Shown here piece by piece: positions 3,432-53,379 of a stretch of 64,000 bases of DNA. Within the stretch, counting starts at the first letter, position 1. Every line of letters starts with the position of its first letter. The notes beneath the pieces are model-generated. The model made no database searches, had not been told where the DNA came from, and worked only from the letters and a program-made list of their open reading frames with translations. This stretch comes from a virus. Both the position numbers and the translations under genes were made by a program. The DNA is taken from positions 20,187 to 84,186 of IMG/VR virus record IMGVR_UViG_3300009506_000011. One strand, 5' to 3'.

Positions 3432-3492
3432 TCCGTAGCAGGACTCGGCCTGCTAGTCAACTAGCGTTGCCCGTGAAACGCTAGCGTGCTAG
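3432..3492 (-). promoter_or_regulatory. Promoter for the tRNA-like RNA plus GCTAGCGTGCTAG box
   Basis: TTGACT(3460-3455)-N17-TACGGA; 13-mer at 3480-3492. Confidence 0.55.
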
Positions 3493-3500
3493 TCAGCCGT

Positions 3501-3950
3501 ATGGCATGCAGATACCCAAACCCCTGCGATTGCTTTATTTGCAGGCCCGACGGCCTACTTGCCGCGGCGCGGCGCCGGCCCACGCCAGGACAAGACCCCG
3601 TGGCGGATATGGCCGAGCCGGTGACGTTCGCCGCGCAACCGCCGGACTGGGCGAGTCAGAGCGACGACCCGCTCGCCGACCTTGCAGCGGCGGAGGGTCG
3701 GCTTGGCCCGGCACCGCGACCGATCATCGTGCCACGCGCCTTCGCCGACGAGCATGGCGCGGCGCTGCAGCGGCTCGGCGCCGAGCTGGTCAGCATCGAC
3801 GGGATGCCCTATCAGCCGCCCGCGAAAAGCGAGGAAGAGATCGCTGAGCAGATCGCTGGCTACGAGCGCGGCGTGCAAGCGACCACAGCGCAGCTGCTTG
3901 ACGTCTTCAGCCAGCTCGTCATCGCGGTCGCGCCAGCGCGGACCAGCTAG
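3501..3950 (+). CDS. Hypothetical protein
   Basis: ORF with typical codon pattern; N-terminal CxCxxC. Confidence 0.5.
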   Translation: MACRYPNPCDCFICRPDGLLAAARRRPTPGQDPVADMAEPVTFAAQPPDWASQSDDPLADLAAAEGRLGPAPRPIIVPRAFADEHGAALQRLGAELVSIDGMPYQPPAKSEEEIAEQIAGYERGVQATTAQLLDVFSQLVIAVAPARTS

Positions 3951-4097
3951 CCTGTACCCGGCCTCGTAGCCTGGTGTGCTCATGCTAGCTGCACACCGGC
4001 CGAGTCGCGCCTCAGCGGACAGGCCGGCAGCGAGGCAGCTCCTAACATAGGTTGCTAGCAGGACGCTCCGCCGCCGTCAACGTGGTAGACTCGGCGC

Positions 4098-4970
4098 ATG
4101 TCAGCAGGCAACCGGATGATCGAGCTGGGCCGCGTGCTCGCGACCAGCGTTACGCCCACGAACCGAGCGATCCTCGGCAACATCGGCTCCCTCGGCGACG
4201 ATAATACCGGCGATCAGGGCGATATTGGCAACGATGAGCGCTTTTTCACCCATCCCGTCTACTGCCGGCCGCTCGGCCACGTGAAGGAGGAGGACGCCAC
4301 GCCGCTCAACCCGGCGGGCGTCTGCGAGTCGGTCATCATCCGATCGGCGGACGAGGTCTATCCCATCGGCTACCGCGACCTGCGCCTCAGCCGGCTGGTG
4401 AACCCGATCGAAGGCGAGGTGGGGATCGTCGGCTACCAGGGCGGTTTCATCAGCCTGCGGCCGAACGCGGACGGCGACGGGACGAACTTCCTGCTCTACG
4501 GCGCCCGACGGGGAACTGACGGCGAGGTGGAGGCGGCCAGCTCGATCGCCATCGACTCGACCAGCTCTCAGAGGCAGATCCTGCTTCAGCACGAGCTCGG
4601 CCAGACGCTCACGCTGAACAAGGACGGGGGCGTCGTCATGGCCAACGCCGCCAACGACGCTTGGCTTGAGGTGAATCCGGACGGGATCTCGCTGAACGGC
4701 AACACCGCGATCACCGGCGCCGTCCGCGAGGTGACGGTGGGCGATCCGCTGTCGGCGCAGAACGTGGCGCTGGCGCCGGACCTGATCACCTTCGTCCAGA
4801 ACGCCGGCCCGACCTTGACGGCTCTCATGACGGCCGTCAACGTGCTGGCGCCGGGGACGTTTACCCCTGCGCAGATCACGGCCATGGCCAACGCCTTCGC
4901 GCCGTACGTGGCCGCGACAACCGTCCAGTCGACGATCCTCAAGGCATCGCCCTTCCTGCCATCGCCGTGA
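4098..4970 (+). CDS. Baseplate spike/assembly protein (gpV / Mu gp45-like)
   Basis: RDLRL..EGEVGI motif, beta-helix-like repeats, position in the tail module. Confidence 0.75.
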   Translation: MSAGNRMIELGRVLATSVTPTNRAILGNIGSLGDDNTGDQGDIGNDERFFTHPVYCRPLGHVKEEDATPLNPAGVCESVIIRSADEVYPIGYRDLRLSRLVNPIEGEVGIVGYQGGFISLRPNADGDGTNFLLYGARRGTDGEVEAASSIAIDSTSSQRQILLQHELGQTLTLNKDGGVVMANAANDAWLEVNPDGISLNGNTAITGAVREVTVGDPLSAQNVALAPDLITFVQNAGPTLTALMTAVNVLAPGTFTPAQITAMANAFAPYVAATTVQSTILKASPFLPSP

Positions 4971-6684: not shown

Positions 6685-7239
6685 TCATGGCCACCTCGTC
6701 AGCTGGACATCGTCCGGCACTCGTGCCTTGCTCCGGGCGAGCGGATGCTTCGGGCTTCCGTCGCTGTTCTTGCCGAGGCACCACAGCTCGCGGCGCTCGT
6801 CTCGGCGCAGCGGCGCGGCTAGCCGCTGGCGGATCGACTCGCCGCGCTCAAGCGTCCACGGCTGCAGCAGTGCGCCCCAGGCTGCCACCACAAGCTCGGC
6901 TGACTGCGCGGCTCGCAGGACGTGGTAGTCATTGTGGACGCCCACAGCGGCCAGCAGACCGCGCTGCTTGATGGTCCGCTCGACCACCGCCGGATCGGTG
7001 GCTCGGAGAGCGAAGAGATTGACGACGATCAGGCTGCCGAATCCCCACCGGCGGCTGAAGCGGATGCAACGGCGGATCGTTGGATCGTCTTGCTCCGCGT
7101 CCGCGGTGGATGGATTGCACATGATCCAGCAGACGACCGGCCCGCCGCCGCCGCACGGTCGCACGAGGGTCCAGCGGTAGCGTCCGCAGCCGCTGATCCC
7201 GGCACCGTAGCCGACGGCGAGCGTGAGCTGCTGTGTCAC
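6685..7239 (-). CDS. DUF1643 family protein
   Basis: CGRYRWTL..WIMCNPSTADAEQDDPTIRRC..NLFALRATDP..AWG..KHPL. Confidence 0.9.
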   Translation of the reverse strand: MTQQLTLAVGYGAGISGCGRYRWTLVRPCGGGGPVVCWIMCNPSTADAEQDDPTIRRCIRFSRRWGFGSLIVVNLFALRATDPAVVERTIKQRGLLAAVGVHNDYHVLRAAQSAELVVAAWGALLQPWTLERGESIRQRLAAPLRRDERRELWCLGKNSDGSPKHPLARSKARVPDDVQLTRWP

Positions 7240-8057
7240 GACCGCCGCCGCTCCCGGAGAGCAAGTTCGATTTTGGCGTGTGCGGCGTCGGCATCATGTC
7301 GGCTTCGGATGCCACCTAGTAGCGTGGCGTAGTCAGCCTCTGCCGGCGCGGCGTGGCCGCTCGCGAGCACGTCCTCTGGCTTCAGCCGCACCAGCAGTTG
7401 GGCGCACAGCTCCGTCGCTCCTTCGCGTCCCAGCTCTGTGATGAGGCGCTGTGCGGTGGTCTCGGGGTCCGTGACGAGGTCCGTGGGCGTCTGGCCTTCG
7501 AGGTGGAGACTCACCTCGAAGGCTGCTAGGTGGCAGTCATCGCATGCATCTGACAAGCGCTCGTGACAGACCAGCTCGGAACGGATCTGCTCTATCCTCT
7601 CTGGCGTGCACTGGGATATGACATCGTTGCACGGTTCAGCGGGGGCCGTCTCTACTGTCAGCCAGGCGATGAGATCTCCCAGGTCAGCGCCGATCCAGTC
7701 GGCCGCCGCCCACATCGGCTCCGGCTCGCCAACTTCGAGTAGGACGGCCGTCGGCTTGTCTGCGCCGATGGCGTAGCCAAGCTCGAGGTGAGCGCTCCGG
7801 CCGCACGGCATGACGAGCACCAGCGCGTCGCAAGATTCGAGCGCCTGCATATCGCAGACGAAGCTCCGCTGGGCGATGGGGTGCTTCAGCGCCTCGACGA
7901 CCTCCTCTGCCGACCAGCTCTCCCAGGCTGGATCAATATCCGACCAGTGGAAGTCAGCGTGGGTGCGGAAGTCGTAGACATCGTTGCCGGCGGCGCGCAG
8001 CGCCTGAACGACGCCGGGCTGTCGCGGATTTCTCCAGCTGCTTGCAACATAGATCAT
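7236..8057 (-). CDS. Nucleoside 2-deoxyribosyltransferase-like protein with C-terminal extension
   Basis: IYVASSWRN..D..AL..CDALVLVMPCGRSAHLELGYAIG. Confidence 0.8.
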   Translation of the reverse strand: MIYVASSWRNPRQPGVVQALRAAGNDVYDFRTHADFHWSDIDPAWESWSAEEVVEALKHPIAQRSFVCDMQALESCDALVLVMPCGRSAHLELGYAIGADKPTAVLLEVGEPEPMWAAADWIGADLGDLIAWLTVETAPAEPCNDVISQCTPERIEQIRSELVCHERLSDACDDCHLAAFEVSLHLEGQTPTDLVTDPETTAQRLITELGREGATELCAQLLVRLKPEDVLASGHAAPAEADYATLLGGIRSRHDADAAHAKIELALRERRRS

Positions 8058-8092
8058 GCCCCGACACTACAGCACCTGCGCCGCCTAGTCAA
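8058..8092 (-). promoter_or_regulatory. Leaderless sigma70-like promoter
   Basis: TTGACT(8092-8087)-N17-TAGTGT, then 6 nt to ATG. Confidence 0.65.
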
Positions 8093-8145
8093 CTAGTAAC
8101 TGCTAGCAGGATAGCCCCGGCGGCGGCCGGCGGTAGAATTGGCTC

Positions 8146-14448: not shown

Positions 14449-14997
14449 TCACACAATGCGCTGCACGACGTCGTAGCTGACGCACGCCAGCGCGGCGATC
14501 TCGTAGCGCGTATAGCCTGCCTCGTGCAGGCAGCGGACCATCTTCTGTTGCCGAGCCGACAGCGTACCGGGGCGGCCGGTGCGCACGATCCGCCGGCCGT
14601 CCGGTCCGCGCAGCACTCGGATGTGCCGCCGGCCAGGCCGCGCCGGTCCGAGCTCCACGTAGCCGTGCCGCTCCAACGTTTGGAGGTGCGCCATGATCTG
14701 GCCATCTCCGGCTACCTGCAGCTGCTCGGCCAACTCACTCAGCGACGGCGAGCGACCGGCGCGCCGCTGGTACTCGATCACCAGCTCGAGCAGCTGCCGC
14801 CGGCGCTCACTCAGTGGCCGCTTCGGCGCGAAGGTGTCCGGCCGCACCAGGGTGATCGTGGAGCCGCACCGGCAGTTTCGCTGCTCGGCTACCTCGCCAG
14901 CATCGAGCAGCTCGGGGTCGACAGCGCCGACGAGCGGCAGCCGGCGCCACGCTGCGCGGCTGTAGGAGGCTCCGCAGGAGCACGTCACGGCGCTCAC
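14449..14997 (-). CDS. LexA-type DNA-binding domain regulator with Zn motif and a second HTH
   Basis: LSERRRQLLELVIEYQRRAGRSPSLSELAEQL..HLQTLERHGYV; no peptidase domain. Confidence 0.8.
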   Translation of the reverse strand: MSAVTCSCGASYSRAAWRRLPLVGAVDPELLDAGEVAEQRNCRCGSTITLVRPDTFAPKRPLSERRRQLLELVIEYQRRAGRSPSLSELAEQLQVAGDGQIMAHLQTLERHGYVELGPARPGRRHIRVLRGPDGRRIVRTGRPGTLSARQQKMVRCLHEAGYTRYEIAALACVSYDVVQRIV

Positions 14998-23191: not shown

Positions 23192-23441
23192 CTCTCCTCC
23201 GTCGAGCCATTGCTCGTACCGCCGCCAGCCGACGCTCGCGGTCGAGCTGCCAGCGGATCGGCGGATACAGCCTCGCCCATCGCTGTACCGTGCTAGCTGG
23301 CCAAGCTAGCTTTGCCATGTCGCCCCCGGCGCGGCGGATGGCGGCCATGACGAGGCGCCTCGCCGCCGCCTCCCCACGCCTCAGCCGCGCGCCGAGGGAC
23401 CGGCCGCTGTCAGCCACTGGAGCTGGCCAGGACGGCATCAT
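23145..23441 (-). CDS. Small HTH-like protein
   Basis: AIRRAGGDMAKL..STVQRW; coupled to neighbouring genes. Confidence 0.45.
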   Translation of the reverse strand: MMPSWPAPVADSGRSLGARLRRGEAAARRLVMAAIRRAGGDMAKLAWPASTVQRWARLYPPIRWQLDRERRLAAVRAMARRRRDGEEAQATAARPRQD

Positions 23442-24313: not shown

Positions 24314-24597
24314 TGCACCCCCGGCAGATGAAGCAGCAGCCGCAGCCAGGCCGGGGTTCGGCGCGCTTCCCGCGCCATCCGCGCTCGTCTGGCTGGACTG
24401 CTGTCCGTCAACGCCTCATGCCAGCACTGTCGCCGCCGTTGCAGCTCCTGGCGGACCTTGAAGGTAAGCCACGCTTCTAGCCACTTGAGCAGCGCGCCAG
24501 CACGCGGTCCGCGGTTTTCTAGACGCGGGCGGGAATCGAACCCGCCCCCGGGACTGGAACCCGGGGCCCGCCATCGGGCCGCGTGCTGGCGCTTCAT
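24310..24597 (-). CDS. Possible leader ORF containing the tRNA-like structure
   Basis: Leaderless ATG after the promoter; GTGA-coupled to the PAPS reductase gene. Confidence 0.35.
   Translation of the reverse strand: MKRQHAARWRAPGSSPGGGFDSRPRLENRGPRAGALLKWLEAWLTFKVRQELQRRRQCWHEALTDSSPARRARMAREARRTPAWLRLLLHLPGVQ
24523..24584 (-). ncRNA. Minimal tRNA-like four-way junction (CCA at anticodon position)
   Basis: ACGCG|GCCCG-ATGG-CGGGC|CCCGGG-TTCCAGT-CCCGGG|GGCGGG-TTCGATT-CCCGCC|CGCGT; all stems perfectly paired. Confidence 0.75.
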
Positions 24598-24632
24598 TCT
24601 GCCATGCTAGCGTGCTAGGCGGCAGACGTCAA
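24598..24632 (-). promoter_or_regulatory. Promoter overlapping a GCTAGCGTGCTAG box
   Basis: TTGACG(24632-24627)-N17-TAGCAT; 13-mer at 24606-24618. Confidence 0.7.
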
Positions 24633-25680: not shown

Positions 25681-26230
25681 GGCTCAGCCGCGAAGCTTCC
25701 AGAGCGCCAGCGCCGCGTCCGGGTGGACGATAACGCCGGCGAAGTCGGCGGAGTCGTAGGTGACCTGGCGGCCCTCGACGTCGCACGGCAGCTGCTCGCC
25801 CCGGTGAAGCTCGGGATCCTGGTAGATGACGAGCTCACCTCCGTCGATCGTGGGCTTCCAAGGGTTGGGTGGTGTTCCTCCTGCTGGCATGACCGGAAGA
25901 TAGCCGGTCATGAGCACCGGGGCTAGCTGGCGGCCGCCTCATATCCACGAGCCGGTTCATGGGCTGATCGTCCAATTGCAGAACGGATCGAAGCGATCAC
26001 CCTTTGGGCCGCGGAAGAAGCAAAACCAGTGACCGATGCCGTGGCGGCCATAGCGCACCTTCTCGGCACGCTCGTAGCACTTGAGCGCGTCACCATCGCG
26101 CCCGAGCCGTGCGAGTCGGCTAGCCTCGCGATAAAGGCCATCGCAGCGAAATTGCTGCGTGACGATGTGCAGCTTGGTCCGCCTCCGCATCCCACTTGCC
26201 TACCACGGTCGGCTCTGCTAGTCAACTAGC

Positions 26231-26728: not shown

Positions 26729-27115
26729 ATGCCGGATTTTCAGCTCAAGCCCATCGGCTCCGAGGTGGTCGACTGGGACGATCCCGCGACGACGGACACG
26801 CCGAGCCGGCTCAACCCGGTGGTGCGCCACCCGCACAAGTATCACCGGATCTTCCGAAACTTTCCTCTCACGATCAAGGCCATCGTGGACGGCATCGAGG
26901 GACCCGCGGATGGCGCACTCGGTGGCCGGCTCTTCGCTTGGAGCTGGGTGGTCACGCGGGAGTCTGGCTACGCGCCGCCGATTCCGACGTCTGCCGGCTT
27001 CAGCAGCACGGTGGTTTTCCCGGCCTTCCACTTCCTCACCGGCCACTACGAGCTGCTGTGCTCGCGGCCTGACGGTGGCGCCGTAGGCGTCACCTTCGAG
27101 ATCGAGGACACCTGA
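26729..27115 (+). CDS. Probable virion structural protein
   Basis: TAGGCT-N5-ATG leaderless start like the other tail genes; beta-rich. Confidence 0.5.
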   Translation: MPDFQLKPIGSEVVDWDDPATTDTPSRLNPVVRHPHKYHRIFRNFPLTIKAIVDGIEGPADGALGGRLFAWSWVVTRESGYAPPIPTSAGFSSTVVFPAFHFLTGHYELLCSRPDGGAVGVTFEIEDT

Positions 27116-27804
27116 GACGGCCGGCCCCACTCATAGAGCGCAATGGCCAACGCCCCTTCAACGGTCAAGCCCGAAACGCGCCCCTGCATCGGAATGGTCG
27201 CGTAGCGAACCGGTAGTCCCCTGGGAAGCCCAGAGCTTTCCCCGCCGAGCAACAGCGTGTCAACTGTCTCGAAATCAACGCCATCGAGCGAGTTCAGGGT
27301 GCCGGTTTCCAACGCTAGCACCCCGTTACCGACTGGCAGTTTATCGATGCCAGCGACATCAACGCGCCCCTTCGCGCCGTAGAGGTTGCCGCTCAACCCA
27401 CCAGCGCACCTGTGGGTAAGCAAGCTGCGCACGCCGAACGCCTCACAGGTCCGAACGGCGCGGTTGAGGTTGCGGCCGACGCGGTGCAGCACAACGCGTC
27501 CCACGGTGCACATGGTCAGCAAGCGGACCAGCAAGCCGGTACGGTCACGGCCGTGAAAGCAGTGCACGAGCAGCGGCCTGCCAGCCGACAGGGCGACGCT
27601 AAGCGCTGCTTGGGCTCCAGCGCCGCTGTAGCTTACTGGACTCTTCCGGTAGCCAATGCCGGCGCTGAGGCAGGCGCGCTCGACGACTGGCCTTGGTCGT
27701 TGCGTCAGGTCCAGTACGGCCTGCCCACCGGCGGCAGCAAAAGCAACGATATCTCTGCGCCTTGGCAGAGCTGAGCGCCAGATCCCTGGTAGAAACTCCT
27801 TCAT
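27046..27804 (-). CDS. Cys-dependent (DSP/PTP) phosphatase fused to a SPOUT (TrmH/TrmL-like) RNA methyltransferase
   Basis: LLVHCFHGRDRTG; NLNRAVRTCEAFGV..LLLGGESSGLP..IPMQGRVSGLTVEGALAIALYE. Confidence 0.85.
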   Translation of the reverse strand: MKEFLPGIWRSALPRRRDIVAFAAAGGQAVLDLTQRPRPVVERACLSAGIGYRKSPVSYSGAGAQAALSVALSAGRPLLVHCFHGRDRTGLLVRLLTMCTVGRVVLHRVGRNLNRAVRTCEAFGVRSLLTHRCAGGLSGNLYGAKGRVDVAGIDKLPVGNGVLALETGTLNSLDGVDFETVDTLLLGGESSGLPRGLPVRYATIPMQGRVSGLTVEGALAIALYEWGRPSQVSSISKVTPTAPPSGREHSSS

Positions 27805-28562
27805 GTCGTTCCGTCTATGACTTCGCGATCTCCGCAGATTTCACGTAGCAGGTCTGGGTAATAAGCCAGCTCCCACTCAACACGCCCGAAGCCGGCACCT
27901 CGCTTGCCGCCTAGGCTCGCAACCCTGATCTTGCGGCGGTCAAAGAGTCCGCCTCGGGTCATAGCATAGGCAGGGTGGACAGGAAGCTTGTGCTTGTAGA
28001 GGTACGCGAAGACGTCTTCTGGCTGCCACCATCCAATCGGAGCGCAAGTGTGGGCCGTGGCGATGCCGTAGAACTTCATCCGCATGTTCCGGCCGCTGCT
28101 CTCCTCCCCTCGAATGCCGGATACGTGGCGCTCGCCGTAGCGTTCGCGAGCCAGCGCGAAGCCGCGTTCAAGCGTCCCCTTTGCATGCCAGCCGTCGGAA
28201 TCGCGTAAGCAATGCACGACGATCTCATCATACGGTAGCGGATACTTGCGCAGGAATCGGTCTCGGACCTCGCCACACTCCGGCGAGCATATGGGCTCAA
28301 CGCGCACCCAAACAAGGGGCAGCCGCACCGTCTCACGATAGAACAGGCGCCACGCCAGGTGCGCCGCTACCGTTGAGTCCTTGCCCCAGCTCACACCGAC
28401 GTAGCAGGGGCCTGACTGTGCGAACTTGTGCAGCTCCCGGATGGCCTTCTGCTCCTTGCGCTCCAGTGCCCTGAGCCGAGCGCGCAGGTGGTCCTCACGC
28501 TCGCACGTCTTCCAATGCGCGATGTCGTCTGAGCGATGTCGTGGCGAGGGAACAAGGGTCAT
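27801..28562 (-). CDS. cysH: Type IV-B-associated CysH-like (PAPS reductase family) protein
   Basis: VSWGKDS, SGIRGEESSGR, PIGWWQPEDVFAYL..LPVHPAY; in the csf operon. Confidence 0.85.
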   Translation of the reverse strand: MTLVPSPRHRSDDIAHWKTCEREDHLRARLRALERKEQKAIRELHKFAQSGPCYVGVSWGKDSTVAAHLAWRLFYRETVRLPLVWVRVEPICSPECGEVRDRFLRKYPLPYDEIVVHCLRDSDGWHAKGTLERGFALARERYGERHVSGIRGEESSGRNMRMKFYGIATAHTCAPIGWWQPEDVFAYLYKHKLPVHPAYAMTRGGLFDRRKIRVASLGGKRGAGFGRVEWELAYYPDLLREICGDREVIDGTT

Positions 28563-29499
28563 GCCGCGCTAACCACAATCCGACCAAAGCCGAAGGCCGT
28601 GCGTCCACCGAGCCCCGGCCCATTGGCAGCGCACCTCAGCAGAAACTCGCCCACGGCGTTTGTGTCCACCACCACGTGCCCAACCCAACCGGAGATCAGG
28701 CCATACTTACCGCCCATGTCGACGACCTCCTTGCGGCTGTCGTGTGAGATCACTTTGAGCATGAGGCTGTCCCGGTCGAAGCTGTCCACGCCGACGCGCT
28801 CGGGCAGCTCGGTGGCTAGGGCCGCGGTCAGGGACGTCTGCGTCGGCTGGATTCTCAGTGTGGCCCTGCCGGTGGACTGGATGACGACAGGCGTCAGGGC
28901 GTCGATCCGCAGCTTGCGATGACCTCGTTTGGAGACGCGCGGGTACCGCGGTCGCCAGCAGGCGCCGAACCCCACCTCGACGGGCGCCTGAACAGCTCCG
29001 CTCCGACGCGCCGCTGCTCGTACAGGGCCCGTGCGGCCTCGGCATCACGAACGTAGATTGCCCAGCCGATGCCGCGCCTGTGGGGCAGCAACGCCCATTC
29101 TGGCCAGCGCTGGTGCTGCAATCCGAGCAGCGTGGTCATGAGCCCATGAAGGGCGCGTGTGTTGCGGTGGTCAACCGGCCAGCGCGGCTCTGGCTCGATG
29201 AACAGCTCGAAGCCCAGGCCCGGCATGTAACCGGCATACGGCGGAGCTCCGAGCAGCCAAGGCTGACGCTTGCTGCAGCCTCGCTTCGCTGCGCACCATC
29301 TGGCATTGCGCGCCCGAGCACTTGCCACAGACCGCGGCGTCGCCAGCTTGGAACGCTGCCGGCGCTTCCCTTGGCAAACCGGGGCGCCGCAGGTCTTCTG
29401 GTGCTTGCCCCTGGGCACGAATGGGGCCTCGCAGACTGCGCATCGGTACGTTGTGGAGATGCCGTCGGCGGTAGTGTAAACCTCAGCTTGGGACTGCAC
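28559..29499 (-). CDS. cas6: Zn-finger-Cas6-like RAMP, frameshift near 28983
   Basis: AAGGAG RBS with GTG start; CAVC..CGAPVC; ALHG; LTPVVI; GWVG; C-terminal G-loop GLGGRTAFGFG; two ORFs join with +1 nt at a CCC run. Confidence 0.7.
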
Positions 29500-30133
29500 A
29501 GAGCTGCTCCTTGGCATGTGCCCAGTAGGGGTACGTCAACGTGCGGTAGGCCATCTGCGGGTCAGCTAGGCCCGGCCAGTCGGGTGGCAGTGAGCGAAGC
29601 GGGCGCCCGTCGCGCACCACCGGGAAGCCGTCCCACGGCTCGCATGGCTCGACCGACCAGCGGCGGACCTTGCCCAGTCCAACGCCGCGCTTCTTGCCGA
29701 GATAGCTGATGATGGCGAGCAGCTGCGCAATCTCGACGCGCTCGCCGATACACCACCAGCACATGGCGTCGTTCACCATGTGCTGCCCCTCGAGCGGCAA
29801 ACGATAGCTCTTGCAGGGGCCAGCGCTGATGAGGACCCGCCGAAGCTTCGCGTCGCCCATGGCCTGCGCCTCGGCGAGTGGAAAACGGCGGTTGACCCAC
29901 CGGCGCTCCACGCACTCGACCTCGGAGACGCTGAACGACGCGAGGTGAAAGCGGCCGTCTGGCTCGCGCTCAATCGGGATCTCGATAGGCTGCACATCGG
30001 CAGCGCTGAGCGGCGGCGGCATCCCGTCCCGACGCGCCACCGCAGCGGCAAGCAAGGCGTCGATGGCCAGCGGTCCGCCGGGGAGCGCGATGGGGCCCAG
30101 CAGCTCGGCGGTGATGATGAGCGGCTCAGGCAT
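29483..30133 (-). CDS. csf3: Type IV Cas5-like subunit Csf3
   Basis: PLIITAEL..LAIDALLAA..GPCKSYRLP..YLGKKRGVGLGKVRRW..LR.LP..PYW. Confidence 0.85.
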   Translation of the reverse strand: MPEPLIITAELLGPIALPGGPLAIDALLAAAVARRDGMPPPLSAADVQPIEIPIEREPDGRFHLASFSVSEVECVERRWVNRRFPLAEAQAMGDAKLRRVLISAGPCKSYRLPLEGQHMVNDAMCWWCIGERVEIAQLLAIISYLGKKRGVGLGKVRRWSVEPCEPWDGFPVVRDGRPLRSLPPDWPGLADPQMAYRTLTYPYWAHAKEQLCAVPS

Positions 30134-31112
30134 TGACCGACCGGAGGAACTCGGCGATGCGGTCCTTCCGCTTCGCCACGTGGCTCCTGAACAGCGAGCC
30201 TACCTGCTCAGCGAGCGCGGTTACGTCTACCGGGGTCAGCTCGGCGGTCGTCACGAAACGGACGTCCTGCCCGGCTACGACGCGGAGCAAGCCGTGTCCG
30301 GTGCCGCGTTTGCCGCCCACCCGAGCGTTGGTCAAAAAGGCCGCCATGGCCACCTGAAACGTATCGAACTGCAGGTCGTCGTAAACGGTTGCCTCGCATG
30401 CCCAGGAAAAGCAGCTCCCTTGTGCGACACGCTCAAAGCGGCGCGGCATCATGCTGGACTTCTCGCGCTCCCTCCCGACTGCGTCGCCCTCGGCGCTGGC
30501 TTGCTCTGAGGCGGTGAGCCGGCGGTTGATCTCGACCTGATCTCCGACCGGAAGCAGCCGACGCTTTTGCGGGCTGAGGGTCGGATCCATGCGGGTGCGC
30601 TGGACCTCCTCGACGTGGGCCCGGCAGGTGTCCAGCTCACCGAAGTGCTCGGCCGCGAATGCCAGGGCCCAGCTTGGGACGTAGCGAACCGACTCCTCGC
30701 AGATGAGCGTCGCGTCCTCGACGACGAGCTGGCCGGGAATGACGCGGTTGTCTGAGCAGCCACCGAACAGCGTCATGCTGGGCACGAGCTCGCACAGCTC
30801 CCGGTAGCGGTCCAGGTTGATGGTGCCAGCGGAGCCGCGGCCTGTGACCATGCCGCCGGCGAAAAGCAGGCGCAGCGCCGCCTCTGAGAGCTTCTCTTCG
30901 CCCAGCAGCTCAGCGGCCTCGAGAAGGGCATAGGCCGCTGCCTCGCGCATCCCGTGGCGCATCGTGTCGCCGGTGATGATCGGCACGTGGGCCCAGCCGC
31001 CGTTGTGCCGGAGCTTCCGGCGCATGATGACCGCCTCGTTGCCGATTGTTTCCTCGTGATGAGCAATCGGCAGCGCCGCCTCAAGCACGCACTCATATCG
31101 CTTCAGTCGCAT
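30126..31112 (-). CDS. csf2: Type IV Cas7-like backbone Csf2
   Basis: PIAHH..VPIITGDTMRHGMRE..LLFAGG..SMTLFGG..VGGKRGTGHG. Confidence 0.9.
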   Translation of the reverse strand: MRLKRYECVLEAALPIAHHEETIGNEAVIMRRKLRHNGGWAHVPIITGDTMRHGMREAAAYALLEAAELLGEEKLSEAALRLLFAGGMVTGRGSAGTINLDRYRELCELVPSMTLFGGCSDNRVIPGQLVVEDATLICEESVRYVPSWALAFAAEHFGELDTCRAHVEEVQRTRMDPTLSPQKRRLLPVGDQVEINRRLTASEQASAEGDAVGREREKSSMMPRRFERVAQGSCFSWACEATVYDDLQFDTFQVAMAAFLTNARVGGKRGTGHGLLRVVAGQDVRFVTTAELTPVDVTALAEQVGSLFRSHVAKRKDRIAEFLRSVNA

Positions 31113-31554
31113 CTCTACCTCTCTTATCCCAGCACTGCAGACATTGTCCCATCGGCGGAAGATCATAGGACATGACCAATCCGCACGTTTTGCATGTACG
31201 TTTCCTGCTTTCGGCAGCAAGCCGAGCCATGGCCATCAGCAGGCCGTACTCCCGCTCAACTAGGTCGAGCCATTCACCGGCAGCTCCCAGCTCCCCGACA
31301 GCGGCGCCGAGGTCAACCAAAGCCCGGCAGCCATCCTTGCCGAGCGTCGGAAGCTGCAGCCCCCGCTGCATCGCCGTCGCCCACTCGTCCGGGCTGGCCG
31401 TCCGTCTGGCGGCGCTCAGCATCCTGTTCTGGATTTGCTCCCAGTGCTTCAGCGGGCTGCCGCCGGCGGCAAGGTAGGCCCTTCGCAGCTCGAGCAGCAG
31501 CTCCACGGTCTTGGTTCGCAGGCTTTCGCGCTGCTTTTCGTCCAGCCTTGGCAC
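31093..31554 (-). CDS. cas11: Type IV-B small subunit (Cas11-like) with C-terminal CxxC-CxxC
   Basis: AAGGAGG RBS; helical KHWEQIQNRMLSAARR..EW..RGLQL; located between csf1 and csf2. Confidence 0.7.
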   Translation of the reverse strand: MPRLDEKQRESLRTKTVELLLELRRAYLAAGGSPLKHWEQIQNRMLSAARRTASPDEWATAMQRGLQLPTLGKDGCRALVDLGAAVGELGAAGEWLDLVEREYGLLMAMARLAAESRKRTCKTCGLVMSYDLPPMGQCLQCWDKRGRDATEAI

Positions 31555-32299
31555 GCTTCGCCTCCTTTTCTGCGGCCATGCGCCGCTTGACTTGGTCCTC
31601 GTCGCGCTGCGCCAGCCACAGCGCCAGCGCGAACCATCCGCCGCCGCGCAGCTGTCCGCCTTTGGCCTCGAAGCGCTGCAACGTCTCGCTGCACAGCTGC
31701 CAGGCGCGCGCCTCGTAGCGCCCCGTTTCAAGCTCGGCTTTGGTGGCGCCAGCAGTCAGCAAAGACGCCAGCTCGTCAACAAGCGCCCATCCAGCCTCGT
31801 CGCCGGGAAGCCGGATCCTGGTCTCGTCGAACAGCACCCAGCCGCCGGGACCAGGAGGGTTCACCGGGGTCCACGGCAACACGTGTTTCTGGCCGCTGTC
31901 GGCGATGGCCGCAAACCAAACGCCACGGTGTGGCCGCCGGAGAAACTCAAGCACGACGGGCTTCTCGCCCTTGCTCGCGTTCAGGTACCGCGGCTCAGCC
32001 GCCGCGTCGTACAGGTGGGAGTAGTTGCGGTAGTTGCCGCCGAGCTTCTTACCGGGGGCTGGGGGGCGCCCGGGGACCGGGGAAAGCCTGGCACAGAAGT
32101 AGACGCACGGCTCGCAGACCCATTTGCTCTCTGGACAGCGAACGCGGTTTTGGCCTGTGAAGGTTGAGCCGTTCCACAAGCTGACTGGCTGGCCCCGTGT
32201 CAGCGAGGCGGCGCAAAGCCAGCAGCGACCATCGGCCGGCGCGCAATCGGTGTGCATCGGAGCGCCGAGGTGGTGGTGCAGCAGGCGCGTGGCGCTCAT
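31313..32299 (-). CDS. csf1: Type IV large subunit Csf1 (Cas8-like)
   Basis: CWLC..STFTGQN..SKWVCEPC Zn finger; IADSGQKHVLPW.PVN. Confidence 0.85.
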   Translation of the reverse strand: MSATRLLHHHLGAPMHTDCAPADGRCWLCAASLTRGQPVSLWNGSTFTGQNRVRCPESKWVCEPCVYFCARLSPVPGRPPAPGKKLGGNYRNYSHLYDAAAEPRYLNASKGEKPVVLEFLRRPHRGVWFAAIADSGQKHVLPWTPVNPPGPGGWVLFDETRIRLPGDEAGWALVDELASLLTAGATKAELETGRYEARAWQLCSETLQRFEAKGGQLRGGGWFALALWLAQRDEDQVKRRMAAEKEAKRAKAGRKAARKPANQDRGAAARAAKGLPCRRRQPAEALGANPEQDAERRQTDGQPGRVGDGDAAGAAASDARQGWLPGFG

Positions 32300-32335
32300 G
32301 ACGGGCATCCTGCCAGCCGCTAGCGTGCTAGTCAA
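32300..32335 (-). promoter_or_regulatory. Leaderless promoter of the csf operon with GCTAGCGTGCTAG box
   Basis: TTGACT(32335-32330)-N17-CAGGAT, then 7 nt to ATG; 13-mer at 32319-32331. Confidence 0.7.
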
Positions 32336-32382
32336 GGAAAACCGACAGAGCCTGACGCGGCTGTCTGGCCTACTCTGTCCAG

Positions 32383-38233: not shown

Positions 38234-39233
38234 GCTTCTTTATCCTCAATGGTCTACTGGTTGACGGCTTCACCACCTGGGCGACAATGTGCTGCCGGCC
38301 AAGCTCTTTGGCGAAGTCGTGATGGTTCCCCGGCGGCGTCACCTTGACGTAACCGGAGCGCTCCTGCGTTCGCAGGGTGATCTGAAAGTCGGCGACGAAG
38401 CCGCGTTCAGCGGCGCCCATCGCAAGCCGAATGCGCGCCTCGCTTGCTCGGAGTGCTGCCTCGGTGGTCCGCGCCTCGGCGCGGAGCCGCACAATCTCGT
38501 CGGCGTAGCAGGCGAGGTCCTCGGACAAGACGACCTCGCTGCCATCGTCCTCGGGGTAGTGGCGCGCGATGGCACGGGCGGCCGACTCGCTGCCGTCTGG
38601 CTCCGGCGGGTCCCGGTCGATGACGCGCTGCCAGAAACGCTCACCGTGCCAGATGATGCGGCGGATCATCCGCTCGTCCCGTGGGATGTCCTGCCAGACG
38701 AAGCGCGCGCCGCCGATGAGGCAGGCGATGGCGCCGCGGCTGGCCCCCGTAACGAGCAGCTGGTGCTGGACCTGGATGAAGTACGGCTCCGGCGCACCAT
38801 CCGCCCAGTCGGCAATCTGGTAGGCGGAGTGCGTCTTGGCTTCGAGGGGTTGCCATCTGGCCTTGTTCGCTGCTACTTCCTCGATGCTCAAAAGCTCGAC
38901 TTCGCTCGGCTCCAGCGTCCAAGCATCCAGCGTGCATTGCGCCCAGGGATGCTCACGGCTCCGCAGCAGCTGGCCGCTCGGCCGCACGAGCCGCCCGGTG
39001 CGCTCGCCGAAGGTTTGGATGATGATGGGCTCAAGCTTGTGGCCCCACTCGATCGCCTCGACGTCCGACGGGTCGACCGGCGGGATCTCGCCCATCTTTT
39101 CGAGCGCGAGCTCGTAGGCGCTGCGCCACTTGCTCAGGCCCATGACCGCCGCCATCTCGGAGGCGCCAATGCCGGCGGTGCGCTTCTCGAGCCAGTCCTC
39201 GCGGTCGTCGCAGGGGATGACGTCGTAGGTCAT
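38226..39233 (-). CDS. YqaJ-like viral recombinase exonuclease
   Basis: WLEKRTAGIGASE..WGHKLEP..TLD..LEAKT..YFIQVQHQL. Confidence 0.92.
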   Translation of the reverse strand: MTYDVIPCDDREDWLEKRTAGIGASEMAAVMGLSKWRSAYELALEKMGEIPPVDPSDVEAIEWGHKLEPIIIQTFGERTGRLVRPSGQLLRSREHPWAQCTLDAWTLEPSEVELLSIEEVAANKARWQPLEAKTHSAYQIADWADGAPEPYFIQVQHQLLVTGASRGAIACLIGGARFVWQDIPRDERMIRRIIWHGERFWQRVIDRDPPEPDGSESAARAIARHYPEDDGSEVVLSEDLACYADEIVRLRAEARTTEAALRASEARIRLAMGAAERGFVADFQITLRTQERSGYVKVTPPGNHHDFAKELGRQHIVAQVVKPSTSRPLRIKKHG

Positions 39234-39892
39234 GGCTGCCCCATGAGGCGGGGCTCGCGCTCGGCGAGCAGGTCCCTATCGCTAAGCCCCATGAGGCGCC
39301 GCTGATCGTCTTCGGTGACGGGTCCTGAGAAAGGTATGGGGTCGGCTGCGACAAATCCCAGCTGCTCCATTGCTCGAGCGGCGCGTGGCGCCAATGGCAG
39401 GTCGGCGCCACACTGCAGCGCCGCATAGCCGGAGCCGCCGCACCAGCCGCACCGACCAGCCTGCGGCTGCCAGCCTTTGGCGGTGAAGACGACCGGGTAC
39501 GCCTTGTGACGCTTGCGCCAGCCTCGTCGCCACCGCCGGAAGGAAAGACCGGTTAGAACGAGGCTGATCATGGCGCCTCCAGTGGAGGCATGTTCGGCCC
39601 CGGTAGCGGCGGCTCAGCCGGCTCTTCTCCGACCGACATCGTAAGGCCCCGGTTCCACGCTCGGCCGGCTTGCCTGCGGACGATGGCGCGCCGTTTCGCC
39701 TCCCGCGCTGCCTCGGAATCGGTCTCGCGCAGAGCCACGATGGCCGCGTCGGCGACGAGCCGGGCGGTTGCGCACGAGTCATCGTGCAGAGCGAACGACG
39801 GAGACGACGGCCGCAGCTCGGTGTCCTCGAATGGCCACAGGCAACCGAGGAAAAGAATCACCAGACCGCCAGGCCCGGCGCGCTTGCACAGC

Positions 39893-40081
39893 TCATCCAG
39901 CGTCATCGCTCACCTCGTTCGGATCCCTGAAGCCCAGCGTCGCCAGCGCCTCGCGGATCCTCGTCTTGCTGTTGTCGTTCACGGCGTCGCCCGAGAGGTA
40001 CCGCCGCACCGTCTGCGGCGACACAACCGCCTTGGCGGCGACTCGGACCACGTCATGGCTAGATGTCACATCGGGTTGCAT
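39893..40081 (-). CDS. Small Cro/LacI-like HTH protein
   Basis: VAAKAVVSPQTVRRYLSG; divergent from the repressor. Confidence 0.65.
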   Translation of the reverse strand: MQPDVTSSHDVVRVAAKAVVSPQTVRRYLSGDAVNDNSKTRIREALATLGFRDPNEVSDDAG

Positions 40082-40167
40082 GGTGCCAATTGAGCACAGC
40101 CGGTTAGGGTTGTCAACAGAAAAGTGACTAGTTGACCGCTTGTCCAGTAGTTTGCTAGTATCTGGAC
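40082..40167. promoter_or_regulatory. Divergent promoter / switch region
   Basis: Plus strand TTGACC-N18-TAGTAT-N6-ATG; minus strand TTGACA-N17-TCAATT-N6-ATG. Confidence 0.65.
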
Positions 40168-40512
40168 ATGCCTACCCCCACTCCCCTCGGCCGGCGTCTG
40201 AAGCTGGCTCGGCTGATGACCTTCCCGCCGGTGCCGGAGGCCGGACCGGAGCCGGCGGCTGGCTGGCAACGTGTCAGCCAGCGGGAGCTGAGCCTGATGG
40301 CCGGTCGGTCTGACGGCCTCGTCGGTCACCTCGAAGGGGGCCGGACGAAGGACTCGACGGTTGAAACCACGACGCGGCTCTGCGCGATCCTGGGCATCAC
40401 CACCGACTGGCTCGCCACCGGCAAGCAGCCGGCGCATCCTGGCGGCGGCGAGCTGAACGCCGAAATCGTCAACCACGCCGTGCGAGCCACACGAACGACG
40501 GAGGCGGCGTGA
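40168..40512 (+). CDS. XRE-family HTH repressor
   Basis: LGRRLKLAR..SQRELS..VGHLEGGR..LCAILGITTDWLATG. Confidence 0.85.
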   Translation: MPTPTPLGRRLKLARLMTFPPVPEAGPEPAAGWQRVSQRELSLMAGRSDGLVGHLEGGRTKDSTVETTTRLCAILGITTDWLATGKQPAHPGGGELNAEIVNHAVRATRTTEAA

Positions 40513-41157
40513 TGCCCGGGGAACTGCCGGATGACGTGATGCGCCGGCTCTGTGAGGCAGATCCGCTGGCGGACTTGAAGAGTCGGTGATCGAGCAGGCG
40601 GTAAGCTTACTAGTTGACTAGCGATGCGCGCCGCGGTAGTCTGTCGTCGGAGGTGACCGATGGCGACGATGAGCGAGCTGGGCTTTACCTGGTACGGACG
40701 CGAGAATAACGGCGGCTGGCGCTTCGATGTGCGGCTGCGGGATCCGGCGGTTCGAGCTGCGCAGCTGGAGCGCTGGAGCGAGGAACGAAAGGAGCGTTGC
40801 CGGGCCCTGATCCGCCGGCCGCACTGCAAGCGGCCGCGCAAGCTGAAGCTCCTTCGGCGGATATATGGCGGGCGACAGCAGCTGCCACCCGACGTGCAGC
40901 AGCTGGACGGCCAGCTCATGAACCGGCATGCACGGCGTGCGCTATGAGCTGGCTACGAGACGAGTACGGCGAGGTCAGCTGGCTATTCGCCGGGATCGTC
41001 GCTCTGGCGCTGCTGATCACCGAGGAAGGCGTAGCCGTTTGCCGGTGCAGAAGGCAGCCGTGATCTGCCTACGTTGCCAGGAGACGGGTGTGCTCGTCCC
41101 GCGCCTGCGCGAGCGGCTGCTCGCCGTCATCATCGCAGCGGCCTGGAGGGGATGCTG

Positions 41158-41791: not shown

Positions 41792-42562
41792 ATGAGCCTC
41801 TTCGACCAGGGGCCGGGGCGGGAAGCGCTGCTCGCCGCTGTCGAGGGTGTCCACCAGGCTGACGCGGTGGAGTGGCTCGCGGGCCTGCCGCCGGAGTCTG
41901 TCGACCTGGTCATCACGGACCCGGCCTACGAGAGCCTCGAGAGGCATCGGGCGCACGGCACGACCACGCGGCTGAAGCACTGGTTCCCCATCTTCCCCAA
42001 CGCGCGCTTCGCGGAGCTGCTGGCGCAGGTCTACCGCGTCCTGCGGCCGGACAGCCACTTCTACTTTCAGTGCGACGAGGAGACGGCGGACGTGGTCAAG
42101 CCGCTCGGGCGCGCCGCCGGCTTCAGGTTCTGGAAGTCGCTCATCTGGGACAAGGTGGATCTCGGGATGGGGTATCACTACCGGTGCCGGTGCGAGCGCA
42201 TCCTGTTCTTCGAGAAGGGCAAGCGGAAGCTCAACGACCTCAGCGTGCCAGACGTGCTGCAGTTCCGGCGCGTGCGCAACGGCTCCCCCACCGAGAAGCC
42301 CGTGGAGCTGTACGAGGTGCTGGTCCGGCAGAGCTCCGAGCGAGGTGAGGTCGTGGCGGATCCGTTTCTCGGCTCCGGCGCCTGCGGCGAGGCCGCGCTG
42401 CGGCTCGGCCGGCGCTTCGGTGGCTGCGACATCTCGGAAGCGGCGGTCGGCTGCGCCACGGTCCGGCTTGCCCCGTGGTTCGTCGCTAGCCGATTTCGCC
42501 AGCCGGTCCACATCTCCGGGGCATTGGCGAGCGCCGGTTTGCTGCCAGACGAAAAGGCTTGA
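41792..42562 (+). CDS. DNA N4/N6 methyltransferase (beta class)
   Basis: VDLVITDPAY, PTEKPVEL, DPFLGSG. Confidence 0.88.
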   Translation: MSLFDQGPGREALLAAVEGVHQADAVEWLAGLPPESVDLVITDPAYESLERHRAHGTTTRLKHWFPIFPNARFAELLAQVYRVLRPDSHFYFQCDEETADVVKPLGRAAGFRFWKSLIWDKVDLGMGYHYRCRCERILFFEKGKRKLNDLSVPDVLQFRRVRNGSPTEKPVELYEVLVRQSSERGEVVADPFLGSGACGEAALRLGRRFGGCDISEAAVGCATVRLAPWFVASRFRQPVHISGALASAGLLPDEKA

Positions 42563-48129: not shown

Positions 48130-48459
48130 ATGAACGCCGAGACGCAGCTGCAGCTCGCCATCCAGAAGGCGCTCGAGTGGCTGCCGGGCGTCAGGGTCTG
48201 GCGCTGCAACACCGGCGCCAGGAAGGGCGGGCGTCTCAAGTTCGGCCTCCGAGATCTGAGCGGCAACGTGGCAGGGACGCCGGACCTGATCGGCATCGCT
48301 TACGGCCGGCCGCTCGCGATCGAGGTGAAGCAGCCGGGGAACGAGCCCGAGCCTCATCAGGCCGTCTGGCTCGCTAGCTGGCGAGCTCTCGGCGGCATCG
48401 GCCTCGTCGTCCACAGCGTCTCGGGGGCGGTGAGGCTGGTGCAGGAGCAACGCCGTTGA
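48130..48459 (+). CDS. VRR-NUC domain nuclease
   Basis: ETQLQ..GTPDLIG..AIEVKQPG..Q..W. Confidence 0.88.
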   Translation: MNAETQLQLAIQKALEWLPGVRVWRCNTGARKGGRLKFGLRDLSGNVAGTPDLIGIAYGRPLAIEVKQPGNEPEPHQAVWLASWRALGGIGLVVHSVSGAVRLVQEQRR

Positions 48460-48491
48460 CTCGTAGGCTAGCAGCTGCTAGGATGCTAGCC
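48456..48491 (+). promoter_or_regulatory. Leaderless promoter with GCTAG boxes
   Basis: TTGACT-N17-TAGGAT-N7-ATG (48492). Confidence 0.65.
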
Positions 48492-51118: not shown

Positions 51119-51144
51119 GGCTGTCAATAGCGGAGTTTTGCGAC

Positions 51145-51909
51145 ATGAGCGATGGTGACGATATCGCAGGAGAAAAAACGACAGGTATGACATTGTCTGG
51201 CAGCGAGCTGCTGCAAACCGCCCAGAACGCTGGCATCGACGTGGACAGCTACCGCGTGCCGCCGCCGGCCTTGAGGACGGTGCCGACGGACCGCCTCGAC
51301 GAGCTACGCGCTTTCGCCGCGGCGCTGGAGCAGAATGGCGACCGCACGCTGGTGACGCCCGTGGCGTGCGAGGAGCACGGCGTCTACATGACAGGTTGGG
51401 GGTGGCATGGCAGCTGTCCGCGCTGCAGCGAGCAGCCGGAGCCGCTGATGGAGCTGCTGGAGGATCCCCTGTGCTGGCCCGGCCATGGCTTCTACTGGGT
51501 GGACTGGCGCGGACCTCGCGGCCAGTGGGTTTTCGGCGAGAGCTACCCGGTCCGCCGGCAGTACTTCGCGCGCCTCGCGGAGCTGCTCCCTGACATGGAT
51601 CCCGGAGAGGTGATCTTGGAGGCTGCAGCGAAGGAGATCGAGCGACTGCGCGCAGGCACGGACAACCTCCGCCAGCTGCTCCGCCTCGCCGTGCTGCGGA
51701 TGCGTGAGGCGGCGGACCAGTGGGATCGCTGGGAGCGTGACTCCGCGCTGGCGCCGCTAGCGCTCGACCAGGAGGTGGACGACGCGATGAACGAGCTGAT
51801 CCGCGCCGTCCGCTTCCAGCTGCCCGCCGCGGACGACTTGCTGCCGGCGCGCAGTGTCGAGCTGCCGGTTCGCAAGGCACTTCCGGAGGAGGCTTGCAGG
51901 CCAGCCTAG
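51145..51909 (+). CDS. Hypothetical protein
   Basis: Protein-like ORF; start uncertain. Confidence 0.5.
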   Translation: MSDGDDIAGEKTTGMTLSGSELLQTAQNAGIDVDSYRVPPPALRTVPTDRLDELRAFAAALEQNGDRTLVTPVACEEHGVYMTGWGWHGSCPRCSEQPEPLMELLEDPLCWPGHGFYWVDWRGPRGQWVFGESYPVRRQYFARLAELLPDMDPGEVILEAAAKEIERLRAGTDNLRQLLRLAVLRMREAADQWDRWERDSALAPLALDQEVDDAMNELIRAVRFQLPAADDLLPARSVELPVRKALPEEACRPA

Positions 51910-53048
51910 CCAACGACCGGCTCGGCTCGGCCAACAGCGACCACGTGCCGCTGCCGGTGCCTACGCAGCCGCGCGAGCACCGCAACCGCCGCGTCCACCG
52001 AATCCCGCACAAGACCATCTCCGTCGCGGAGCTACGCCGCTGGCGCGAGCTGGGCATCGGCTGGGCGACCATCGCCACGAGCCGCGGCCGCCGGCTCGCT
52101 CAACCCCGTGCCTGGGTCTGGGTCGACGAGGTGGAGCCAGACGACTACCAGCTGCTCGAGGACCACCGGCCAAAGTGCCGCGCCGACTGCCGGGACAACG
52201 GTTTGCGTCCTTGCCCCTTCGTCAGCTGCCGGCACAACCTCTACCTCGACGTCTGCGAGGACGGAGCCATCGAGCTGACGCGGCCGGAGCTTGAGCCGGG
52301 CGAGATGGAGTACAGCTGCGTGCTCGACCTCGTAGACGGCCTCGTTGGCGGGCTGGACGCGAAGCGGTCCGAGGACGCGGACGGCCCCGTCTGGAGCTTC
52401 ACGCTCGAGCCCGTGGGCGTGGCGATCAACCTGACCCGGGAGCGAGCGCGTCAGATCGAGAAGGAGGCAGAGGCAAAACTGTTCGTGATGCGTGGCCTGC
52501 CCCGGCCCGAGGGTGACGAGTGGCAGGAGGAAAGGAGCGTCTGTAAGTTGGCAAGGCTACAGCTGTTTATGTCGGAAACTGGGGCGAAGGCGCAGATCGT
52601 CCACGCGCCCGGTCAAGGCACGGGTCCGCGTCTGGACATGACCTGCAGCAAGTGCGGTAAGAGCGGCACACGGTGGTTCCAGGGCTGGACGCTGCTTGAG
52701 ATCCGCGTCATGGCAGGCGTCATCTGCAGCCAGCCGTCGGAGTGCTGCGGCGCACCCATCACCAGCCGGCTGGATGGCATGCCGGCAGCGCTCAACCGGC
52801 GGTACGTCTGCCGGGACCGGGACCGGCGCACGCAGATCACCGAAGCGCTCCGGCAGGCCGGCGCTGACGGTCTCAGCCTGCGGCAGCTGTGCAAGCGGGT
52901 TCCCGGCCGCTGGGCGGAGATCGCGAAGCAGGCGAACAAGCTGGCGGCAGATCGCAAGAGCCACGTCCAGCGCCGCTCGCGAGCGCCGGGCGAGCCGGAG
53001 AGATTTTTCTGCACGTTGCCGGCAACGGCGGCAGCGCTTGCTACTTGA
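51894..53048 (+). CDS. Sigma70 region-4-like DNA-binding protein with Cys-rich domain and C-terminal wHTH
   Basis: RPCPFVSCRHNLYLD..SCVLD..TLEPVG..NLTRERARQIE..A..KL. Confidence 0.7.
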   Translation: MQASLANDRLGSANSDHVPLPVPTQPREHRNRRVHRIPHKTISVAELRRWRELGIGWATIATSRGRRLAQPRAWVWVDEVEPDDYQLLEDHRPKCRADCRDNGLRPCPFVSCRHNLYLDVCEDGAIELTRPELEPGEMEYSCVLDLVDGLVGGLDAKRSEDADGPVWSFTLEPVGVAINLTRERARQIEKEAEAKLFVMRGLPRPEGDEWQEERSVCKLARLQLFMSETGAKAQIVHAPGQGTGPRLDMTCSKCGKSGTRWFQGWTLLEIRVMAGVICSQPSECCGAPITSRLDGMPAALNRRYVCRDRDRRTQITEALRQAGADGLSLRQLCKRVPGRWAEIAKQANKLAADRKSHVQRRSRAPGEPERFFCTLPATAAALAT

Positions 53049-53379
53049 CTAGTGGACGGCGTTGAGCGAGGATAGGTCATGCACGAAGATCTCAAAGCCA
53101 ACGCTGCGGCCATGCGGTCGTGGCTCAAAGTACCAGAAGGCGACCGCGAGGCCATCGCTGCCGCCTTGCCGGGCGATACCGACGCCCAGCATCGTCGAGG
53201 TGCTGGAGTCGAACGAACTGCACGACATTGGCACCCTGCACCCGAGCGTGCGGGGACCGCTCCTGCGGCAGGTCCGTGATGAGGCGCGGGTGCCAGACAG
53301 CTGGCGCGAGAGACCCCCCTATCGCCACCCGGCTGGACGCGAGGCTAGCGAAAGCCCTGCTAGCGTGCTAGCATGAGGC

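Follow-up and report, generated by a model that had tools for sequence, protein, structure and literature searches.

A short DNA word that recurs at the promoters of an uncultured phage invites comparison with several described systems. In the cluster A mycobacteriophages (L5 gp71, Bxb1 gp69), one repressor controls many transcription units through the stoperator, a 13-bp intergenic word that is repeated genome-wide and has copies on early promoters (PMC6550527, PMC9283540). Stoperators are asymmetric, number 20–30 copies, are oriented with transcription, lie mostly off promoters and block elongation. The TrpR operators of E. coli (CTAGTTAACTAG core) and the met-boxes of MetJ are palindromic tetramers or octamers with 8-bp phasing, on which dimers can bind in tandem, and the LexA boxes of Gram-positive bacteria and actinobacteria (GAAC-N4-GTTC) likewise place two tetramers four bases apart. 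At the level of the core promoter, mapping in Streptomyces gave a -10 of TAnnnT, a -35 of TTGACn, a -10 about 6.3 nt from the start and 17–21% leaderless transcripts (PMC8079986). Here we analyzed a window of 64,000 nucleotides, the right-hand 64 kb of the 84,186-bp virus record IMGVR_UViG_3300009506_000011, in which a 13-mer, GCTAGCGTGCTAG, occurs in four identical copies. We find that this 13-mer is one sequence class in a family of near-palindromic CTAG(Y)-NN-(R)CTAG boxes, that the paired-CTAG family marks most predicted promoters of the phage, and that the boxes stand an even chance of doubling as operators for a dimeric regulator.

The repeat was first noticed in an initial annotation, which took it for the operator of a regulon that co-expresses a csf-encoded Cas-like complex with two tRNA-like RNAs. 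Its four exact copies, all on the plus strand, are confirmed, and compare with no occurrence in 100 dinucleotide shuffles (expected 0); when up to two mismatches are allowed, 14 matches are found versus 2.3 expected, the sites at 2070, 2088 and 48477 among them. The variants listed in that annotation at 2070 and 2088 (GCTAGCTGGCTAG) and from 48467 (GCTAGCAGCTGCTAG, then GATGCTAG) are equally real. Every exact copy is intergenic according to our gene calls, which came from our own codon-usage caller and were cross-checked against Pfam, NCBIfam and PHROGs. Flanking sequences of 50 nt resemble one another across the four copies only as much as random genome segments do (p 0.1 to 0.97), indicating that the 13-mer is an independent short element and not part of a longer duplication; four exact copies in unrelated flanks therefore point to selection on the 13 bp themselves. 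The conserved stretch exceeds the ~8 nt for which a TGn plus -10 element can account, and its dyad, GCTAGC-GT-GCTAG(C), is palindromic at 12 of 14 positions. Copies are found in both orientations relative to transcription and in different promoter registers. A scan of IMG/VR for the 13-mer followed by CTAG within 30 nt returned 25 contigs with a single match each, none of them a relative, and these were set aside as chance matches. A seemingly longer resemblance of the csf promoter to that of tRNA-like 2 (TGGCAGRATG and beyond) was also discarded, the flank alignment lying within the genome-wide null (p 0.22).

CTAG itself is mildly under-represented (observed/expected 0.65), and 44 of its 96 genome-wide copies fall within the 9.1% of the DNA called non-coding (binomial p 7e-21), a test that bears out the earlier impression of a concentration at promoters. 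Neighboring CTAGs spaced at exactly 8 bp form 13 pairs; 20,000 random placements yielded 0.22 such pairs on average and never more than 4. All but one of the 13 have complementary bases adjoining the CTAGs, which makes these boxes palindromes with 5–6-bp arms and a 2-bp center. The largest class, class A (CTAGTTGACTAG; pair form CTAGTCAACTAG or its complement), has 6 copies and supplies -35 boxes; the 13-mer class (GCTAGCGTGCTAG, core CTAGCGTGCTAG) has 4, a third class (GCTAGCTGGCTAG; pair form CTAGCTGGCTAG) has 2 in tandem, and a single variant (CTAGGATGCTAG) occurs once. A further inverted repeat, GCTAGCT-GGCCA-AGCTAGC, with 7-bp arms, occupies 23292–23310 in the gap between genes 22568–23191 and 23438–24313; it is also GCTAGC-based, but has 13 bp between its CTAGs.

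The boxes are interlocked with promoter elements. Phage promoters are of host type, sigma-70/sigmaA-like (TTGACn, 16–18 nt, TAnnnT/A), and most stand at a leaderless ATG; transcription starts throughout this work are predicted from promoter sequence. A relaxed promoter model (TTGACn-like, 16–18 nt, TAnnn[T/A]) has 26 matches in the genome, 15 of them in the 9% of non-coding DNA, and in six or seven of the non-coding matches the called start codon lies 6–7 nt past the -10, the signature of leaderless mRNAs. A strict consensus scan independently calls three promoters, including that at 24632..24604. Within each box, one CTAG coincides with a promoter element, either an AG-extended -35 (TTGACTAG) or the TAG of a -10 (often TGCTAGnnW), and its partner lies 8 bp off. 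On the transcribed strand the six-copy box reads CTAG-TTGACT-AG and contains the -35 hexamer. The two strands of the octamer CTAGTCAA carry different elements, one a -10 (TAGTCA) and the other a -35 (TTGACT), and divergent promoters use it in this way: the box at 26218 provides the -35 TTGACT for leftward gene 25957–26190 and the -10 TAGTCA for rightward gene 26231–26725, two genes only 40 bp apart whose starts both lie at the expected distances. The boxes and the transcription units behind them are listed in Table 1.

Table 1. Paired-CTAG boxes and associated transcription units (window positions)
Feature	Coordinates	Strand	Position relative to promoters, or content
13-mer copy 1	3480..3492		16 bp beyond the -35 of the leftward tRNA-like 1 promoter, ~-55..-67 of the predicted start
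13-mer copy 2	24606..24618		-21..-9 of a leftward promoter; supplies TAGC of the -10
13-mer copy 3	32319..32331		spacer (-32..-20) of the leftward csf promoter, abutting the -35
13-mer copy 4	53359..53371		-21..-9 of a rightward promoter
Tandem GCTAGCTGGCTAG boxes	2070..2100 (2070 and 2088)		18 bp center to center
Class A box	3453..3464	minus	-35 of the tRNA-like 1 promoter; -10 TACGGA 3437..3432, predicted start near 3425
Class A box	8085..8096	minus	-35 of leaderless leftward gene 7236–8057; -10 TAGTGT, ATG 8057
Class A box	26218..26229		common to back-to-back promoters
Class A box	40610..40621	plus	-35 of a rightward block (DNA methylase, DnaB helicase); -10 TAGTCT
Palindrome CTAGCAGCTGCTAG, perfect over 14 bp, overlapping CTAGGATGCTAG	48467..48489	plus	over promoter TTGACT-17-TAGGAT (48456–48484)
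Type IV-B-like operon	27046..32299	minus	csf1, csf2, csf3, cas6-like remnant, cysH-like and SpoU-like genes
tRNA-like 2	24523..24584	minus	cloverleaf-like fold, UUCGAUU T-loop
tRNA-like 1 transcription unit	3278..3424	minus	folds; no Rfam or ARAGORN match
Packaging/head operon	53380..61705	plus	134-aa (amino acid) gene, large terminase, Mu-type portal, MuF-domain protein

The four 13-mers occupy their promoters in different ways. Copy 2 lies in a predicted promoter composed of TTGACG (24632..24627), 17 nt and TAGCAT (24609..24604), with +1 at ~24597. The csf promoter around copy 3 consists of TTGACT (32335..32330), 17 nt, CAGGAT (32312..32307) and 7 nt to ATG 32299, a start that agrees with the database protein and with relatives beginning MSAT. 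At copy 4, TGC-TAGCAT (hexamer 53369–53374) is followed after 5 nt by ATG 53380, and a third half-site, GCTAGCG (53344–53350), lies 15 bp upstream. Copy 1 had been placed just upstream of the tRNA-like 1 promoter; it is indeed near that promoter but falls outside the core. Its right half, TGCTAGTCA, resembles an extended -10 and faces a rightward gene starting at ~3609, and the right half of copy 3 together with the next bases gives the same TGCTAGTCA, facing rightward genes 32383–34516. When the copies are tested for the register of an extended -10, the one at 53359 fits (TGC-TAGCAT-5-ATG), those at 3480 and 32319 read TAGTCA without the final T, the one at 24606 is reversed and lacks the TG, and the csf copy sits in the spacer. 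The tandem GCTAGCTGGCTAG boxes span the spacer (-32..-20) and the -10/start region (-14..-2) of a leftward promoter, TTGACT-17-TAGCCA-7-ATG(2068). Between the box at 32319 and the GTG of gene 32383, a stretch of ~42 nt (32341–32382) can form a hairpin (GACAG..GCC/GGC..GTC), a possible leader structure.

At 67% G+C, the genome carries direct terminal repeats and is estimated to be 100% complete, and among public sequencing runs a marine sediment metagenome is the single run covering the full DNA. We found no close relative in the phage collection (DNA search; terminase and DnaB protein searches), none in IMG/VR by single-protein searches, and none in metagenome and genome collections beyond a 3.4-kb stretch, L029, and distant matches. 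Terminase and Csf1 relatives reach 73–79% identity, and the nearest terminase relatives (78–79% identity) lie on short metagenome contigs. Related DNA was compared at the level of the boxes in one stretch, L029, whose terminase match is 70–79% identical. Upstream of its packaging genes, L029 has CTAG-GTCG-CTAGCAT, 6 nt and ATG, within flanks that no longer align; it also carries TTGACTAG with a leaderless ATG. Judged by sequence, the paired-CTAG skeleton is retained in L029 with the inner bases changed. A different result was obtained with phages that carry csf genes: CTAG-N4-CTAG is absent from 34 IMG/VR loci with Csf1 homologues (27–60% identity) and from 5 whole Csf1-bearing records (285 kb), versus 13 occurrences in the present 84-kb genome. 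The box is therefore a property of this phage lineage and not of the csf module; since it does not accompany csf genes in these 34 loci and 5 records, we rejected its classification as a csf-linked regulatory site.

The boxes show both likenesses to the described systems and differences from them. They share with stoperators the 13-bp intergenic word, but are near-palindromic, number only 4 (13 across the wider family), sit at promoters without exception, occur in both orientations and have candidate repressors only; near-palindromy, promoter position and dual orientation led us to reject membership of the stoperator class. The class A box differs by one base from the trp operator core (CTAGTTAACTAG), and the resemblance to TrpR and MetJ sites is one of geometry only. 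With LexA boxes the phage boxes share the tetramer-N4-tetramer geometry, and the phage encodes a LexA-type DNA-binding domain, but the sequence differs and the protein has no LexA cleavage domain. A further likeness is to actinobacterial sigmaA leaderless promoters (TTGACn, 16–18 nt, TAnnnT, start 5–7 nt past the -10, ATG at +1), an architecture that the predicted phage promoter model fits (PMC8079986). TGn, moreover, precedes many phage -10 hexamers, as in extended -10 promoters. Ordinary sigmaA promoters, however, lack the strictly conserved second CTAG at 8 bp, the palindromic arms and the tandem copies of the phage boxes.

These features can be read in several ways. Under the operator reading, to which we assign about even probability, a dimeric DNA-binding protein of phage or host origin would bind the GCTAGC-NN-GCTAG(C) dyad, the bound dimer would cover the -10 or the spacer and block RNA polymerase, and four promoters (six if the two GCTAGCTGGCTAG boxes are counted) would be switched together. 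The co-switched set would be a mixed one, in which the csf, tRNA-like 2/PAPS-reductase and packaging operons are joined by the divergent regions at 3480 and 32319. Three traits expected of a repressor operator were found: copies above chance in non-coding DNA, dyad symmetry and overlap with core promoters (with predicted starts, and with the 3480 copy outside the core). An operator, as originally proposed, is thus a reasonable reading because the 13-mer is non-random, intergenic and on core promoter elements, including those of csf and tRNA-like 2, although the element proved to belong to a general promoter family. The main rival reading, possible but less likely, is that the boxes are promoter words only, that is, the preferred core promoter sequence of this lineage, read solely by RNA polymerase. 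One strand would then offer an extended -10 (TGCTAGnnW) and the opposite strand a -35 (TTGACTAG), back-to-back promoters would often share the word, and the four 13-mers would be one favored version. Each box does give the -35 or -10 of a plausible promoter, intergenic DNA contains 27 instances of TGCTAGnnn, in which a TAG-type hexamer forms a TGn extended -10, and three of the four 13-mers read (C)GTGC-TAG(TCA or CAT) on the plus strand, like a TRTGn-type extended -10. Similar promoter-word readings have been proposed for other uncultured phages (TAGTTGAC, TGCTAGAC). A polymerase element, however, would be expected in a single register and orientation, whereas the copies here include one within the spacer (csf) and one that is reversed (24606); because registers and orientations vary, a separate binding site fits better than a fixed polymerase element. 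We favor the operator reading over promoter words because the latter do not explain why 13 bases are identical amid unrelated flanks, why the boxes have palindromic arms and a distal GCTAG(C) half-site, why they occur in two registers and in either orientation, or why copies stand in tandem at 2070 and 2088. Several observations nonetheless weigh against an operator. Promoter needs alone explain much of each box, given the 27 intergenic TGCTAGnnn and the use of CTAGTCAA as both -10 and -35; the transcription starts are all predicted, and the box-binding proteins are candidates only. The inner four bases differ in L029, so that the exact 13-mer is not conserved between phages. PF01371 (TrpR) has no match in the 84-kb genome, on which ground we rejected assignment of the boxes as TrpR operators, and searches of the genome with Arc and RHH_1 gave no convincing ribbon-helix-helix match. 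Finally, a winged-helix open reading frame (ORF) of 174 aa at 1188–1712, behind the tandem boxes, was dropped as lead regulator on account of its weak coding signal and lack of a PDB match.

We consider it unlikely that the 13-mer is a dedicated operator co-expressing the Csf complex and both tRNA-like RNAs as one system, as the initial annotation had argued. Copies do overlap the core promoters of csf and tRNA-like 2, each of the two operons has a PAPS-reductase/cysH-family gene, and assembly of type IV-B complexes on RNA of non-CRISPR origin has been described (PMC7937560). This much of the proposed regulon stands, but the set of units is not Cas-plus-tRNA, because copy 4 lies on the promoter of the terminase/portal/MuF operon and because rightward units also lie in front of copies 1 (3480) and 3 (32319); the unit next to copy 3 includes a tail-fiber-like gene. 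With a set spanning such different operons, the 13-mer fails as the main evidence for one Cas/tRNA system. The tRNA-like 1 promoter uses a class A box (CTAGTTGACTAG) in common with five other, unrelated units, and its core does not include the 13-mer. The other csf phages described above lack the box, short-word blastn of the 34 Csf1 loci found nothing resembling tRNA-like 1 or 2, and the csf copy and the tRNA-like 2 copy have flanks of chance similarity (p 0.22). The annotation had itself named two outcomes that would speak against specific co-regulation, an equal frequency inside genes and a mark on all early promoters. The former was not seen, all copies being intergenic, whereas a family on most predicted promoters comes close to the latter. 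Very improbable, in our estimate, is that the boxes are marks at the DNA level, either targets of a phage methyltransferase (GCTAGC or CTAG) or recombination junctions of mosaic modules. The phage does encode a beta-class N6-adenine/N4-cytosine DNA methyltransferase at 41792–42562 (Pfam N6_N4_Mtase; PDB relatives M.MboIIA and CcrM), CTAG is mildly under-represented, and in one metagenome the match to a related contig begins at 32311, 8 bp short of the box, and extends rightward, with different DNA on the left. The fixed registers of the boxes relative to -35, -10 and start codons, however, indicate transcription, and junctions at promoters are expected in mosaic phages without any special site.

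If the operator reading is followed, the candidate box-binding proteins, as predicted from their sequences, are a LexA-type winged-helix protein (14449–14997), an XRE/Cro-like pair (40168–40512 and 39893–40081) and a 384-aa protein with a sigma-region-4-like helix (51894–53048). The gap upstream of the operon holding the LexA-type protein contains no box. The winged-helix ORF at 1188–1712 has no homologue among 5.8 billion proteins. Around it, in ~1 kb of the window (750–1708), long ORFs overlap on both strands with a weak codon-usage signal in all frames, making the gene structure there uncertain.

The transcription units behind the boxes are diverse. In the csf operon, NCBIfam models for Csf1, Csf2 and Csf3 match in gene order (E 2e-6, 1e-10 and 1.5e-12, matches that fall well below the curated cut-offs), and a cysH-like match lies within the same operon. 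The Csf1-like family is large, with >500 metagenomic proteins and 34 IMG/VR phage loci (L091–L124), so that phage-borne type IV-B-like modules look widespread. In several relatives, the gene that directly precedes csf1 has a Cas6-type glycine-rich loop (GFGR-like) at its end. Related metagenome contigs, compared from four DNA sequencing runs over 22000–41000, differ in gene content from this phage: one skips 23432–24315 (the PAPS-reductase gene) and another skips 27114–28564 (the cysH-like and SpoU-like genes). Since exactly these genes are skipped, the sulfur-transfer and methylase genes look like optional add-ons. The contigs that skip them (run X3, another metagenome) keep tRNA-like 2 and csf1–3.

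tRNA-like 2 lies within a leader of ~280 nt (24314–24597) that precedes the PAPS-reductase gene (23438–24313) and whose sequence scores as non-coding; the tRNA-like 2 transcript, with a predicted start at ~24597, continues through the PAPS reductase, a 207-aa gene without family match and an ABC-ATPase/GNAT gene. A 95-codon ORF runs from the predicted +1 (24310–24597, minus strand), overlaps the PAPS-reductase start at GTGA and has the tRNA-like fold as its 5' third. This leaderless ORF (95 aa, at 24597) and another at 3501 were rejected, as both score as non-coding. The tRNA-like 2 fold shows sub-threshold Rfam similarity to mascRNA (E 0.002), tRNA-Sec and YrlA; ARAGORN and Rfam at gathering thresholds found no tRNA or RNA family across the whole genome. 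Outside the window, a 185-bp gap among plus-strand structural genes (L001 13357–13541, genome coordinates) has two GGTTCGAG T-arm-like words on the minus strand and an adjoining strong hairpin, with no Rfam or ARAGORN match and no CTAG box. Rightward of the box at 32319, gene 32735–34516 encodes a 593-aa protein without family match, whose last ~200 residues are similar to C1q/TNF-like and Bc2l-C N-terminal trimeric jelly rolls (ESM Atlas). The predicted structure suggests a candidate tail fiber or receptor-binding protein.

The common 13-mer cannot serve as evidence for one system of Csf complex and tRNA-like RNAs, and a link between the two needs direct evidence. It is a doubtful though conceivable extension that a paired-CTAG regulator times the expression of a phage-borne type IV-B Csf complex, with its tRNA-like leader RNA, together with virion and packaging genes, the tRNA-like RNA being the natural partner of the complex. 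The paired-CTAG boxes are one more example of a familiar phage regulatory design. Through them, the promoters of an uncultured phage from marine sediment, one without close sequenced relatives, can be mapped almost completely and in testable form; in this map, leftward accessory units (the csf operon, the tRNA-like RNAs and the PAPS reductases) stand back to back with rightward units, including several virion genes, via common boxes of 8–12 bp.

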